Shown: positions 43,071 to 58,393 of the stretch, one piece after another | Layout: the number at the start of each line of letters is the position of its first letter | How positions within the stretch are numbered: the stretch's first letter is position 1 | Virus record (IMG/VR): IMGVR_UViG_3300028591_000087 | Span: 129,103-193,102 of that record | Origin: a virus | Lineage: Duplodnaviria > Caudoviricetes | Strand: one strand, 5' to 3' | Length of the DNA: 64,000 nt | Notes under the pieces: generated by a model | The model's input: the letters and a program-made list of their open reading frames with translations, nothing else | Told to the model about the DNA's origin: nothing | Databases searched by the model: none | Translations under genes and position numbers: made by a program

Positions 43071-43182
43071 TAGACAGTTTTTTAGGTTGGGATTCGAACC
43101 CAAATACTCAGATTTTCAATCTAATGTCTGATCCAATTCGGCTACCTCCGGCTAAGAGCCAGAAAATTGCTGTAACTGCCTA
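43071..43182 (-). ncRNA. CAGCAA element with tRNA-Phe-like insert
   Basis: TAGGCAGT TACAGCAA...ACTGTCTA; encloses TTAGA TTGAAAA TCTGA and the T arm TTGGG TTCGAAT CCCAA. Confidence 0.65.
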
Positions 43183-43360
43183 TAAAATATCAATAGAAAT
43201 AAAGGATAAAAGAAAGACCAGCTTTCCACCCTTTCGACGGGTGTTGGGGAGCACTTTTGCACGTCTGCATTATCTCCTGGTCTGCCCGGGGTGGATCTTT
43301 TTGGTCAGGTACTCCACCAGCTTCCTCAAGACTACTTTTCCCCGAAATAGACGAAGGTAG

Positions 43361-43432
43361 AGCTGCCGATAGGAATCGAACCTACAACCTGGGCATTACA
43401 AGTGCCCTGCTCTACCGTTGAGCCACGACAGC
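43361..43432 (-). tRNA. tRNA-Thr(UGU)
   Basis: GGGCA CTTGTAA TGCCC. Confidence 0.92.
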
Positions 43433-43438
43433 ATAGAC

Positions 43439-43517
43439 AAGGGACTATTACTGAAAGCAAGTAAATGATTGCATTAATCAAATGGCGCTTATAATAAGAG
43501 ATTGCTGTTTGTCCCTT
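43439..43517 (-). ncRNA. CAGCAA stem-closed element
   Basis: AAGGGAC AAACAGCAA...GTCCCTT, immediately downstream of a promoter. Confidence 0.6.
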
Positions 43518-43557
43518 TCACTATAAATATAATATCAAAAATTTTTATAAAAATCAA

Positions 43558-46302
43558 TTAATCGAAACAATCACCTACGTGATTGATTAATATTTCTCCA
43601 CCCAAAGCAGTCTGATAATCGTCAATACTGATCCAATCACTTGGCTGTTTAGGTTGAGGTTGATCAGCAGGAATTATAACACCAATATTATCCACACGAA
43701 TCCATACCACGCCATCATCGTCAACTTTTACATCAATAATATGTTCGACAATTTCTGGCGGTAAATCCGGAGGGATATCTGGCTTTTTAGGCGGATTTAT
43801 CGGTGGTTCAGGAGACGGTGGTGGAGGAGTACTCGGTTCAGGACTTGTAGTTACTGTCGGAGTAGGAGTTGGCTCAGGAGTAGGAGTCGGAGTCTCTGTT
43901 GGAACTTCACTCGGAGTAGGAGTTGTAGGTGGAATTAACTTATTCTCAAATACAAATTCCATGTCTTCTCCTGCAATATATTGAGTAATAGATTCATCAG
44001 AAACTAACTCATAACCTTCTGGAATATCAATTTCCTTGACAGTATATTTGCCCGCAGGTAAATCTTCAAGTAAAAGTTTACCCTCACCTTTTTGGTCTAC
44101 TGATACTTCAACGTACATAGTTTCTTCTAAACCATGGCCTGAAACTTCGAAGTAGAAAATTGCATTGCCATCCATATACTCATTATTATATACAACTTTT
44201 CTTATTGTGAAATTACAGTAAGAAATAGGTGTAGGGGTTGGAGTAGATGGAGTTGGAGTAGGAGTCTCTGTCGGTGTTGGAGTAGGCGTTGGGGTAGGTG
44301 TTTCAGTAGGAGTAGGTGTAGGTGTTTCAGTAGGAGTCTCAGATGGAGTTGGTGTAGGAGTAGGAGTTGGTGTCACAACAGCAGGAGGAGGAGTTGGAGT
44401 TGGTTTATTAGGCGGATCAATTTCATTGATTACGATAATATTACCTTCATCATCACGTTGAATTTCCTGTAACTTATAATTAGCAGTTGCAATTTCTTCA
44501 ACTTCAACCAATTCTTCTTCAAGTCTTTCAATAGTAACACTTTCATCCACACCAAGAAGATATGGAGTACCATTAATAACAATTGTAAACTTAGGCTCTG
44601 TCTTTCTTAAAACACCAGTGTGATGCCATACTTGATTACCATTCTGGCTGATCCAGAATAGACGTTCGCCTTCCTGCAAATGAATGTCACTAAACGGCAT
44701 TACATTAGAAGGAATAAAGACTTCATTAATCAAACGAGCAGTCATTTCATCATATGGATCTGTTGGATCATAAATTAATTGACCTTCTCCAACAGTCGCC
44801 AAATCCGCGGGTGCGCGATACATTACACTCGGTAAAGTACCACCTGTTGAGCCACTCTTTAATTGATAAAGGCTTACTGCGACGCCATTTTCATCTACAA
44901 ATAATACCCAATTTTCCCAATTGCCACAGTGATTAGAACGGTGACCTTCTTTACTGGTAAGATTCTTATAGTTAGATATATCAGCATACCAATATCCGCC
45001 ACCGGCTTTAAAGGTAGTATTATCCATTGTGTCACAACGAACTTGCCAGATTTCACCCTTTAATTTCTTTGTGACAGTAATTGGAGTTGGTGTAGGGGTA
45101 GGTGTCGGAGTTGGAGTAGGTGTAGGAGTTTCTGTCGGAGTTGCTGTTTCTGTTGGAGTTGGAGTAGGTCCAACAGTAGTTGGAGTTCCACCATTAATAT
45201 GGACCTCTGACCAATTCATATATACATTATTACCAACAACACTTACTCTATTATTTCCGTTTAGATTAATAGTAGAATTTGGCGCAATAATAAATCCGCA
45301 GATATCCATGACATCTACTGAACCAGCATCAGTCCAATAGGTAACATTAGAGCTACCAGAAGATTCATCACTACCTTCACACTGATAACGAGGGAATCCA
45401 TTACCACCGTGAATTACAGCCACACCATTTTCATTTGCGGGAACGTATATACAAGTCTCATCGTTATTTCCGAGTGCATTAAATACACTCTGCCAATAAC
45501 TTTTAGCAGAAGAAACTGCATCATCTGATAAGCCATAGTATGCGGTAGAGCTTTGCGCACTTGTACGTCCCTTAAATTGAATACTTGATTCGTTATTATA
45601 CACATAACTATCGTGCGCGCCAGATCCTCCAACAGATCCATCGTCAACACACATCCAGTTTTCGCCAGTTAATGTGCCACCAACCCATATAGATCCGCGC
45701 ACATGACTTTGTACTCTTGCATTATTTAATGCAATAATATTAAATTGGTTCATACTGTCAAGAGTAGGAGAATAATTACTGATCTCAATTGTTGGTTCAG
45801 TATTCTCTACTATTGGTGCTGGAGCTGCGAGCATTGCGCGCATTACTTGAGGTTCTTCGACCGGCTGAGCAACCTCCGGAGCAGAGGCAGGTTCTTCAAT
45901 TTGTGCAGGTGGATCAATTTGTTCTTGAACAATTGGTTGATCGACTACCACCTGCTGAACCTGGACAGACTGTTCTTCAATTACCTGTTGCTCTTTTTCT
46001 TGAACAGGTTCTTGAACAACTACCTGTTGCTCTTCTTTTGGCTCTTCGATTATATTGGTTTGTTCTTCGGTATTTTCTCCTAATACCTGTTGTGGAGCAT
46101 CTGCAATAATTTGATCTTCTTCGTTTGTAGTAGTCTCTTGTTGAGCAATAATGATTTCTGGCTCTTCATCTTGAATATTAACCATTTCTACTATTGAATA
46201 TGCAGAGGATTGAACTTCTTCTACTATTGTTTCAACAAAACCAATACCTGCTGTGCCAATTACAAGAATGAAAGCCATTAGAAATGCTAAAATTCGTTTC
46301 AT
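43558..46302 (-). CDS. Large secreted/surface protein (signal peptide, choice-of-anchor-A-like domain, PT linkers, SpaA-like Ig domain)
   Basis: HVRGSIWVGG, GFIIAPNS, (PT)n tracts, LPAGKYTVKEI..PEGYEL, C-terminus DDYQTALGGEILINHVGDCFD. Confidence 0.7.
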   Translation of the reverse strand: MKRILAFLMAFILVIGTAGIGFVETIVEEVQSSAYSIVEMVNIQDEEPEIIIAQQETTTNEEDQIIADAPQQVLGENTEEQTNIIEEPKEEQQVVVQEPVQEKEQQVIEEQSVQVQQVVVDQPIVQEQIDPPAQIEEPASAPEVAQPVEEPQVMRAMLAAPAPIVENTEPTIEISNYSPTLDSMNQFNIIALNNARVQSHVRGSIWVGGTLTGENWMCVDDGSVGGSGAHDSYVYNNESSIQFKGRTSAQSSTAYYGLSDDAVSSAKSYWQSVFNALGNNDETCIYVPANENGVAVIHGGNGFPRYQCEGSDESSGSSNVTYWTDAGSVDVMDICGFIIAPNSTINLNGNNRVSVVGNNVYMNWSEVHINGGTPTTVGPTPTPTETATPTETPTPTPTPTPTPTPTPITVTKKLKGEIWQVRCDTMDNTTFKAGGGYWYADISNYKNLTSKEGHRSNHCGNWENWVLFVDENGVAVSLYQLKSGSTGGTLPSVMYRAPADLATVGEGQLIYDPTDPYDEMTARLINEVFIPSNVMPFSDIHLQEGERLFWISQNGNQVWHHTGVLRKTEPKFTIVINGTPYLLGVDESVTIERLEEELVEVEEIATANYKLQEIQRDDEGNIIVINEIDPPNKPTPTPPPAVVTPTPTPTPTPSETPTETPTPTPTETPTPTPTPTPTETPTPTPSTPTPTPISYCNFTIRKVVYNNEYMDGNAIFYFEVSGHGLEETMYVEVSVDQKGEGKLLLEDLPAGKYTVKEIDIPEGYELVSDESITQYIAGEDMEFVFENKLIPPTTPTPSEVPTETPTPTPEPTPTPTVTTSPEPSTPPPPSPEPPINPPKKPDIPPDLPPEIVEHIIDVKVDDDGVVWIRVDNIGVIIPADQPQPKQPSDWISIDDYQTALGGEILINHVGDCFD
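44225..44405 (-). repeat. Pro-Thr coding repeat
   Basis: Hexamer-period PT linker; similar tracts near 43850-43930 and 45080-45190. Confidence 0.8.
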
Positions 46303-46351
46303 TTTGTTTCGCTCCTTTCATAAAAAATAAAGCTGTACCATATGATACAGC

Positions 46352-57527: not shown

Positions 57528-57529
57528 AT

Positions 57530-58028
57530 ATAGGCAAGCGTGCTAAGATCTCGTCATAGCGGGTTGCGCTGCCTAAAGAGCGTAGCGTAAAACCTCAAAC
57601 TAGCCATCGTCGCGTCCAGCTGAACCGCATGTTTTCTGCCTTGAACGGACACTCACCGTAGGCAAGGAAGGTGGACCCAGGGCATTGCACCCAGCCCGTG
57701 GCAGTTTTTACTCTTACTGGAGAACAAATGGGCAAATGCAACCGGTGTTCGAGACCATTTATACGATCTCGGCATTTGCCTATGTAGATCGTGCTCATTA
57801 AACACAACCCTACTTCCTAATGCTTATTGCAATGCTGTGCATCCACTTTCACAAGAGGAATTAGCTCCCCGTTTATACCCGCAGATATAATCCGGATCGA
57901 CACTTTACTATTTCACCCATAGCTAGGCTGTCTTTGAAACAGTGCTCGCCTCAGAGGTTTCCCGCCGTTACGCATGTTATTAGCTCACCCACGGCTAACG
58001 GGCAAGAGTTGAGAGGTTCCATGCTCCT
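57530..58028 (-). ncRNA. Candidate structured ncRNA(s)
   Basis: About 500 nt, GC-elevated, no credible ORF, multiple hairpins, between tRNAs. Confidence 0.4.
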
Positions 58029-58030
58029 CT

Positions 58031-58107
58031 TGGTCGGGCATCCTGGATTCGAACCAGGCACCTCACGCTTATCAGGCGTGCGCTCTAACCAACTGAGCTA
58101 ATACCCG
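58031..58107 (-). tRNA. tRNA-Ile(GAU)
   Basis: CACGC CTGATAA GCGTG. Confidence 0.93.
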
Positions 58108-58197
58108 TTATGTGGAAATAACTTCCAATAACCTCCATCTGGATCTTACTCTTGTCATCTTTTTCTTCCTCAATTTCAGATTCGTTATTTCCTCAAG

Positions 58198-58270
58198 TGC
58201 TCAGAGCTGGAATCGGACCAGCCAGTGGCGGATTTTCAATCCGCAGTGTTCACCAGTTCACCATCTGAGC
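58198..58270 (-). tRNA. tRNA-Phe(GAA)
   Basis: GCGGA TTGAAAA TCCGC. Confidence 0.88.
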
Positions 58271-58277
58271 ATAAAAC

Positions 58278-58393
58278 AAGACCCGCATTTACGCGCTCTA
58301 CCAATTGAGCTAATTGGGCATATGTGCCCAACCGTGGACTCGAACCACGAACCTCGTGCTCCCTAAGCAAATAGAAAGTTGCTGACAGGTCTT
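58278..58393 (-). ncRNA. CAGCAA element with permuted tRNA module and Pro(AGG) anticodon hairpin
   Basis: AAGACCTG TCAGCAA...CGGGTCTT; TGC TTAGGGA GCA; T arm; GTTGGGC-ACATAT-GCCCAAT; D arm. Confidence 0.75.

Follow-up and report, generated by a model that had tools for sequence, protein, structure and literature searches.

What could a phage gain from small RNA elements that sit in the slots of its transfer RNA (tRNA) genes and present anticodon loops outside ordinary tRNAs? The question is raised by a 193-kb phage record of the IMG/VR database (IMGVR_UViG_3300028591_000087), whose terminal 64 kb we analysed and refer to as the window. The record has 36 tRNA genes, every one on the minus strand and a CUA suppressor among them, and at least 15 elements, grouped in two clusters, that share what we call a handle, i.e. 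a helix formed by the two ends and a CAGCAA motif. These CAGCAA elements are likewise all on the minus strand, in which orientation the initial annotation quoted their sequences; all window features described below lie on that strand, and positions refer to the window unless the genome is named. When 25 kb of the window were searched against GenBank phages, the result was a single 57-nt tRNA-like match and no annotated relative. From the data presented here, the elements very probably belong to a real family of RNAs that share the handle and carry tRNA mimics. Their best-supported identity is that of Y-RNA-like partner RNAs of a Ro60-like phage protein, and their displayed arms may, more tentatively, act as bait for anticodon nucleases.

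Handle elements carry tRNA mimics

Every element has the same architecture. The two ends form a 7-bp helix, its 5′ strand is followed by about 3 nt and then by CAGCAA, and a U-rich linker, the cargo, an A-rich linker and the 3′ strand, usually with UUGU or GU, complete the unit. The distance from the preceding tRNA to the start of an element is 2-23 nt, and that from its end to the following tRNA 6-10 nt. Because they thus occupy tRNA slots close to real tRNAs, the handle RNAs are probably co-transcribed with the tRNAs and freed by tRNA processing.

The initial annotation had singled out four of these elements as free anticodon stem-loops on non-tRNA scaffolds, with loops identical to those of the cognate tRNAs, and had interpreted them as sacrificial decoys. 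The loops are indeed where it placed them, i.e. Lys-UUU (TTTGA CTTTTAA TCAAA) at 55267-55283 and Tyr-GUA (GGA CTGTAAA TCC) at 54967-54979, and the two given with the limits of their elements only could be located at 58357-58369 (Pro-AGG, TGC TTAGGGA GCA) and 43108-43124 (Phe-GAA, TTAGA TTGAAAA TCTGA). All four 7-nt loops are identical to those of the phage's own tRNA-Lys(UUU) (62784-62858), tRNA-Tyr(GUA) (62865-62948), tRNA-Pro(AGG) (62580-62654) and tRNA-Phe(GAA) (58197-58270), and the stems differ; in the adjoining real tRNA-Lys and tRNA-Tyr genes (62784-62948), whose loops recur in the elements E3 and E2, the stems are ACGGA/UCCGU and GCGGA/UCCGC. When a closing stem of at least 3 bp was required, the eight cargos of the window contained 4 exact matches to any of 35 real anticodon loops, compared with a mean of 0.09 and a maximum of 2 in 2000 shuffles. 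The description as free stem-loops on non-tRNA scaffolds, however, fits the Lys element E3 only, a plain hairpin without D or T arm, because the Pro and Tyr elements (E1 and E2) are permuted complete tRNAs and the Phe element (E5) has a colinear tRNA body.

In E3 (55242-55322) the handle AAGACUC/GAGUCUU, with ACA and CAGCAA, closes a long irregular hairpin (minimum free energy -14.2 kcal/mol, z -3.4), at the tip of which a 5-bp stem presents the loop CUUUUAA. The element begins 2 nt after tRNA-Leu and ends 8 nt before tRNA-Arg. Searched alone against Rfam up to an expect value (E) of 10, it gave only chance microRNA and small nucleolar RNA matches on the wrong strand and was not recognised as a tRNA. 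Just 5′ of the anticodon arm, E3 (55284-55296) and its paralog (genome 11310-11387) have a second, internal AACAGCAUUUGA that resembles a nested second copy of the handle motif.

E1 (58278-58393, loop UUAGGGA) and E2 (54887-55004) share an unusual order of parts: anticodon hairpin, variable loop, T arm, perfect 7-bp acceptor hairpin with a short linker, D arm, G and CG. In E2 these are GGA CUGUAAA UCC, a short variable loop, the T arm, a 7-bp acceptor hairpin closed by UUAU, the D arm and G-CG. When the halves are joined in silico, ARAGORN calls canonical tRNA-Pro(AGG) and tRNA-Tyr(GTA) cloverleaves, respectively. Therefore, E1 and E2 are complete tRNAs in circular permutation, broken between positions 28 and 29, where the handle is attached. 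A paralog at genome 10405-10517 also re-permutes to a canonical cloverleaf, and in all three 7/7 acceptor pairs are formed. The local anticodon stem of E1 and E2 comprises just 3 bp and reaches 5 bp only through pairing of the CG after the D arm with a CG 3′ of the hairpin. The E2 body is of class I, whereas the real tRNA-Tyr of the phage (84 nt) is of class II. As far as our searches go, permuted complete tRNAs of this layout are the first noted in phages; a literature search found no paper on permuted tRNAs in phages.

E5 (43071-43182) consists of the handle, a small hairpin GGCUCUUAGCC and a colinear tRNA-like body with D arm, anticodon arm (UUAGA UUGAAAA UCUGA), T arm and a 4-bp acceptor remnant, the handle replacing most of the acceptor stem. 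It matches the Rfam tRNA model with 34.9 bits (gathering score 29) over model positions 5-66 only (43084-43147), and ARAGORN makes no call. A paralog in the genome has GCA instead of GAA, and Phe-GAA recurs in E5-type elements of relatives. A free acceptor stem able to carry CCA is thus found in none of the four: in E1 and E2 it is closed by a 4-6-nt linker without CCA, in E5 only 4 bp of it are left, inside the handle and with no free CCA end, and E3 has none.

The internal acceptor linkers of E1 (ACAUAU before G) and E2 (UUAU before G) end like tRNA 5′ flanks, as if an RNase P context had been kept; nearly all tRNAs between 42950 and 64000 have ...UUUUAU, UAUAU or CAUAU directly before position +1.

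The remaining elements of the window show no canonical 7-nt anticodon loop. E4 (47232-47345) combines the same handle type with a permuted tRNA-like module of T arm, acceptor hairpin and D arm. Cargos without an anticodon-like loop are carried by E6 (43439-43517, a hairpin), E7 (57363-57448, non-tRNA, with a paralog at genome 12364-12449) and E8 (41996-42087, A/U-rich). Elsewhere in the genome (3730-3789), a Tyr element is reduced to the minimal hairpin CCGAA-CUGUAAA-UUUGG.

The family in other phages

Since scans with the handle only contain many chance matches, we counted elements with a full 7-bp helix and proximity to tRNAs or other elements, and calibrated the count with scrambled motifs. 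In 450 IMG/VR loci (4.2 Mb), 310 handle elements lie near tRNAs or each other, compared with 9-25 for scrambled motifs, and the handle helices covary freely across elements. An unguided MAFFT/RNAalifold analysis of 16 permuted elements from different phages recovered the T arm, a 6-bp acceptor hairpin and the D stem; the acceptor hairpin shows compensatory changes at 6/6 pairs and none is broken. An IMG/VR scan with the exact E3 handle gave 19 matches, only 2 of which are true elements. The handle elements have no family of their own in Rfam, E1 and E4 giving sub-threshold YrlA matches on the tRNA-like part only.

Other origins of the motif were considered and rejected. A self-cleaving ribozyme finds no hammerhead, twister or HDV match in Rfam, a promoter or terminator signal is at odds with the position of the motif within a covarying helix-plus-cargo unit, and a chance motif is at odds with the far lower counts in the scrambled-motif and shuffled-cargo controls.

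Signs of selection on the displayed anticodon arms

As a check of the decoy idea, the initial annotation had called for enrichment of anticodon loops among homologous elements, and it had named random loops in homologs as a result that would speak against it. Among short hairpin-type cargos, 49/132 have a stem of at least 4 bp with a 7-nt Y-U-NNN-R-N loop, roughly 11-fold more than in shuffles (4.4, maximum 10). The arms found among all hairpin-type cargos number 59, of which 40 are exactly 5 bp long. Twelve of them show the Lys-UUU loop (CUUUUAA); they come from 12 loci and stand on 11 different handles and 9 different stems. In one pair of orthologs (L007/L102), CUUCUAA is retained while A29-U41 has become U29-A41, i.e. 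the stem has undergone a double compensatory change. Another orthologous pair with the handle AAGACCU differs in a single base that turns Tyr-GUA into Asn-GUU (UUAGA-CUGUAAA-UCUAA in L334, UUAGA-CUGUUAA-UCUAA in L449).

The spectrum of these loops is uneven: UUU occurs 12 times, GUU 8 times, UCU, UGG and UGU 4 times each and GUA 3 times. Met-CAU is never displayed (0/59, compared with 83/1144 real tRNAs). Lys, Thr and Asn together account for 24/59 hairpin-type loops but only 121/1160 real tRNAs of the same loci (Fisher 6e-9, post hoc) and for 7% in shuffles. As this set was chosen only after the data had been inspected, it was then tested on a fresh sample, chosen via the protein described below, in which the skew held (7/18, p 0.002).

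Several of the displayed anticodons belong to known nuclease targets. Colicin E5 cuts Tyr and Asn tRNAs, and colicin D reportedly cuts arginine tRNAs, with Arg-UCU among the isoacceptors concerned. Lys, Thr and Asn tRNAs are the targets of PARIS AriB (PMC12409363), and Septu/PtuAB targets tRNA-Tyr (PMC13096335). The skew towards Lys-UUU, Asn-GUU, Thr-UGU, Arg-UCU and Tyr-GUA fits the decoy idea, as far as loop sequences can indicate this.

The loops are not random in the hairpin class as a whole, nor in the Tyr element, whose loop CTGTAAA is retained in the L362 ortholog of E2; for the Pro and Lys elements they partly are. The decoy function, which we infer, thus comes through both computational checks for the hairpin class and for Tyr and is weakened for Pro and in part for Lys.

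A Ro60-like protein as the probable partner

The window encodes a DUF2828 protein (PF11443 and PF25043; 35199-36758; database product of 502 amino acids) that matches phrog_850, 'RNA-binding protein', and has more than 7900 relatives. Because a sequence search against PDB chains gave nothing significant, a fold search was needed. The AlphaFold2 model (predicted local distance difference test score 71) has a predicted Ro60/TROVE plus vWA fold. Its top PDB matches are Ro60/TROVE structures, namely 9kop, 1yvp, the phage phiLo Ro60 9l5y and Rsr 2nvo, over the whole length (E 3e-6 to 1e-4, template modelling score 0.4-0.54, about 530-590 alignment columns). The Pfam TROVE model finds no match in the genome.

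In 80 IMG/VR loci with DUF2828 relatives (51-86% identity), 145 handle matches lie within 3 kb of the gene, as opposed to 10-31 matches of scrambled motifs. They are found on the strand of the gene in 122 cases and mostly upstream of it, and 63/80 loci have at least one; in several relatives, permuted Tyr(GUA) mimics are directly upstream of DUF2828. Taken together with the predicted fold, this co-location makes it likely that DUF2828 is the protein partner of the handle RNAs. Literature searches on DUF2828, and on the motif string of the Class I RNAs discussed below, gave nothing relevant.

In five loci (L474, L490, L514, L519 and L523), permuted mimics of tRNA-Tyr(GUA) whose variable region is long lie about 60-2500 nt upstream of DUF2828. 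They encode ACCA between the acceptor 3′ strand and the linker, which hints that some permuted members could acquire a genuine CCA end once RNase P has cut. The L452 ortholog of E8 is found about 1 kb upstream of the DUF2828 gene.

Other genes close to DUF2828 suggest RNA repair. A nucleotidyltransferase gene (34091-34951; phrog_388, E 1.5e-20) is directly downstream and is kept there in 11/80 relatives, an RNA ligase gene (31354-32742; phrog_968, E 1e-68; Pfam RNA_ligase below cut-off) follows 2.5 kb downstream, and a calcineurin-like metallophosphoesterase (29204-30088) could have an RNA end-healing role. Together with a weak kinase match, these genes and DUF2828 are contained in 9 kb (29204-38256) and resemble an RNA-repair set. 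Searches of the genome for RtcB and a CCA-adding enzyme gave no match; neither did one for T4 Rnl1, which lacked a positive control and is thus not evidence of absence.

Relation to known RNAs

The closest parallel is offered by the YrlA-type Y RNAs of bacteria and mycobacteriophages (RF02553; Chen et al. 2014, PMC4201824), which also have a terminal helix formed by the ends and a conserved unpaired strand by the 5′ half. Their inner tRNA-like module of T arm, closed acceptor hairpin and D arm is matched by E1, E2 and E4, not by E3 and E5; the YrlA of Mycobacterium smegmatis, an RNase P substrate, shares the 7-bp acceptor stem; and the genome encodes a Ro60-shaped protein, here according to the predicted fold of DUF2828. 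In jumbo phages, TROVE proteins with a tRNA-like partner are predicted to be RNA-repair platforms (PMC7824862). The differences are nevertheless clear. The conserved strand is CAGCAA here and GNCGAAN0-1G, the presumed Rsr-binding site, in YrlA (PMC4201824). E1 reaches 30.5 bits (E 0.0047) and E4 21.5 bits, compared with a gathering score of 69, at model positions 23-87 only, and the RF02553 covariance model has no match in E2, E3 and E5. The protein belongs to Pfam DUF2828 and lacks a TROVE Pfam match. Many handle elements add or keep a genuine 7-nt anticodon arm, and some have only that arm, which YrlA lacks. Finally, the handle-element genes lie in tRNA arrays in many copies per genome.

Dictyostelid Class I RNAs (RF01414; Kjellin et al. 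2021, PMC7919456) resemble the elements in another respect. They have a short end-joining stem (6 bp there, 7 bp here), start with AAG and end with CUGU, where handle elements have AAGAC...GUCUUGU or UAGGAU...AUCCUGU. The 5′ stem strand is followed by an unpaired motif whose invariant residues U3, C6, C9, A10 and A11 of 11 are compatible with xxUxxCAGCAA, a likeness compared against the text of that paper only, and the remainder is variable, with a length of about 60 nt. On the other hand, RF01414 does not match the handle elements up to E 5 (region) or 10 (E3). Class I genes are eukaryotic and have their own promoter element, their known binder is the RNA recognition motif protein Rnp1A, and neither tRNA parts nor anticodon arms are described for them.

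Permuted tRNA genes are familiar from the red alga Cyanidioschyzon and some archaea. There, too, the 3′ half precedes the 5′ half and the acceptor ends are linked, as in E1 and E2, which re-permute to cloverleaves. In the phage the break is at anticodon stem position 28/29 and flanked by the handle, and instead of the bulge-helix-bulge junction of algae and archaea there is the 7-bp handle, made by leader and trailer, with CAGCAA unpaired and linkers rich in A/U. Unlike in those systems, we know of no splicing endonuclease in bacterial phages.

Two phage systems are related in purpose. The tRNA-Lys, -Thr and -Asn of T5 act in the same conflict with PARIS AriB (PMC11464382, PMC12409363), as phage-encoded RNA countermeasures to tRNA-cutting nucleases, and the AriB targets coincide with the commonest anticodons of hairpin cargos, Lys-UUU, Asn-GUU and Thr-UGU. 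The T5 tRNAs, however, are working uncleavable replacements, whereas the handle elements are mimics without an acceptor end. AcrIIIA1 (PMC11662646) is an example of a phage protein that, once loaded with tRNA fragments, can counter host nucleases; it binds host tRNA fragments, though, and is unrelated in sequence. A literature search that was not exhaustive found no decoy RNA for an anticodon nuclease.

A possible role as bait, and its alternatives

From co-location and fold, the handle is most likely the docking site for the ring protein DUF2828; therefore, the RNAs would be its Y-RNA-like partners. The cargo is either shaped like an entire tRNA whose acceptor end is closed or missing (E1, E2, E5) or an anticodon arm alone (E3), and as transcribed it cannot be aminoacylated, yet it shows an authentic anticodon loop. 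The function that we consider most likely is that the displayed arm serves as pseudo-substrate or bait for anticodon-loop-reading proteins, chiefly the anticodon nucleases of the host, which the ribonucleoprotein would soak up or would tether to the ring protein. It would act here beside the RNA ligase, nucleotidyltransferase and phosphoesterase genes. We regard this complete chain, from docking on the Ro60-like protein to the action on anticodon nucleases, as a serious if tentative possibility. That the displayed arms are bait for such nucleases is, judged as a claim of its own from sequence patterns, one that we hold with marked reserve. More far-reaching, and doubtful, is the idea of a modular RNA-programmed anti-defence particle in which the ring protein docks RNAs whose exchangeable arms or tRNA mimics would trap host anticodon nucleases, a different one for each. 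Retargeting would then occur through single-base anticodon changes such as the GUA to GUU change in L334/L449 or the GAA to GCA change between paralogs here.

Several observations weigh against the chain as a whole, including the bait function. About two thirds of the hairpin-type cargos, including E6, E7 and E8, lack an anticodon-like arm, so that anticodon display cannot be the only use of the family. Cargos with a tRNA body show a broad anticodon spectrum that extends to Phe-GAA and Cys-GCA, neither of them a classic target of nucleases. To work by competition alone, a decoy would need an abundance rivalling that of host tRNA. As for the nucleases, AriB requires contacts beyond the anticodon arm (PMC12409363), and Septu cuts tRNA-Tyr in the variable loop (PMC13096335), which is absent from the class I Tyr mimic. 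Individual loops are not stable either: the E3 paralog has GUGAUUAA and its ortholog GUUGUAA, and E1-type orthologs show UUAGGGA, AUAGGGA, AUUAGGA, AUAGAGA or an 8-nt loop. In E1, a competing 7-bp helix of the leader CUUUCUA with UAGGGAG is predicted, which could sequester the loop. Because of this pairing and the variation among orthologs, we would not read the 'Pro-AGG' of E1 as meaningful. With respect to the protein, DUF2828 is 5-22 kb away from the elements of this phage, the nearest being 5 kb upstream, and what comes after the gene is a terminator and no element; the synteny of repair genes with DUF2828 is weak (0-11/80 loci of relatives). Finally, 37/59 hairpin-type loops are U36-A37 loops (CU-NNU-AA), and because the skewed loops also form this class, they could be read instead by enzymes of t6A or other modifications.

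As mimics or sponges for anticodon-loop modification enzymes (t6A37 machinery, TGT/queuosine, MnmE/G or TilS-like), the elements would alter the tRNA modification of host or phage. The U36-A37 class, which carries t6A37, comprises Lys, Asn, Thr, Arg-UCU, Ile and Ser-GCU, and the GUN loops (Asn, Tyr) contain the UGU element read by TGT. We nevertheless find this quite improbable, as Met-CAU is never displayed although no other U36 tRNA is as common in these phages, as arms with Tyr-GUA, Pro-UGG and Phe-GAA are displayed too, and as no modification-enzyme gene was seen adjoining DUF2828 here. It is even harder to believe that the elements are decaying tRNA debris or processing spacers, i.e. tandem-duplicated and truncated tRNA genes without function whose loops are kept by descent. 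The cargos are clearly tRNA-derived, the loops of E1-type orthologs drift and E3 relatives have non-canonical loops; yet the handle is conserved and covarying in hundreds of elements from very different phages, the acceptor, T and D helices maintain their pairing by compensatory changes, hairpin-only arms retain exact loops on many different stems, and the elements cluster with one protein family, DUF2828.

Rather unlikely, in our view, is a repair or quality-control adaptor, in which the cargo brings enzymes that handle tRNA (ligase, end-healing enzymes, nucleotidyltransferase, RNase P, modification enzymes) to the Ro60-like ring, where threaded broken tRNAs are repaired or cleared. The model for this is the Y RNA that tethers Rsr to polynucleotide phosphorylase. 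The idea gains from the predicted fold of DUF2828 and the RNA ligase, nucleotidyltransferase and phosphoesterase genes within 7 kb of it, and from the prediction of Iyer et al. that phage TROVE proteins are RNA-repair platforms (PMC7824862). It has a precedent in the Salmonella rsr-yrlBA-rtcBA repair operon (PMC7790460), and tRNA enzymes act on YrlA (PMC4201824). An adaptor would, however, leave unexplained why hairpin-only cargos have exact anticodon loops and why these are skewed to few anticodons. Moreover, repair genes lie within 3 kb of DUF2828 in only 4-11/80 relatives, and RtcB, Rnl1 (with the limit of that search given above) and a CCA-adding enzyme were not found in the genome. We give very little credence to the possibility that E1 and E2 are true permuted tRNA genes, in which RNase P cuts before G+1 in the acceptor linker and CCA is added, so that a two-piece, chargeable tRNA results that is held by the handle and perhaps nuclease-resistant. 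The perfect 7-bp acceptor stems and canonical cloverleaves, the linkers ending in ...UAU before G as in front of the phage's real tRNAs, the ACCA encoded after the acceptor strand of related permuted Tyr elements near DUF2828, and the fact that RNase P cuts the M. smegmatis YrlA, which has a 7-bp stem, and that this RNA acquires CCA (PMC4201824), would all suit this possibility. But the four anticodons are already served by real tRNAs of the phage, conservation is lacking in the loop of E1, and charging of E2 by tyrosyl-tRNA synthetase is doubtful because a class I body is paired with the Tyr anticodon and the real tRNA-Tyr is of class II. Furthermore, leader and trailer of E1 and E2 contain nothing like a bulge-helix-bulge, no self-splicing apparatus was identified, and it is doubtful that a ribosome would tolerate a helix with CAGCAA branching from the anticodon stem.

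Cleavage of tRNA is a major anti-phage strategy of bacteria (PrrC, PARIS, retron/Septu PtuAB, Schlafen-like and Cas-linked nucleases), and phages are known to respond with repair enzymes and with replacement tRNAs that cannot be cleaved. If the bait function is true, small RNAs that offer the targeted anticodon arms on a Ro60-linked handle would represent a third kind of answer, and the long-unexplained tRNA-like module of bacterial Y RNAs would gain a testable purpose. As such short elements abound in public phage data and can be expressed easily, the idea is directly testable in Escherichia coli with known nucleases.

Other features of the window

Another tRNA slot, between tRNA-Ile and tRNA-Gly, is occupied by a full-length match to the Rfam 'cow-rumen-3' RNA (57670-57810), which scores 108 bits where the gathering score is 86.7. 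This RNA motif is a metagenomic orphan, and a phage evidently carries it here. At 63893-64000, the window edge cuts a transfer-messenger RNA and leaves its 3′ part (Rfam 39.5 bits, E 9e-13, model positions 265-374), and the phage thus seems to encode its own such RNA adjoining the tRNA array. Between tRNAs there are G+C-rich spacers of 270-540 nt without open reading frames (57528-58030, 59059-59596, 62949-63285 and 63362-63632). Some of them hold T-arm-like GGTTCGATTCC segments, and they are probably additional structured RNAs. Finally, in the region 47798-53253 a YcaO gene (PF02624, 7.7e-40) and a pair of radical-SAM-like genes come after the suppressor tRNA(CUA), possibly a peptide-modification operon gated by TAG recoding.

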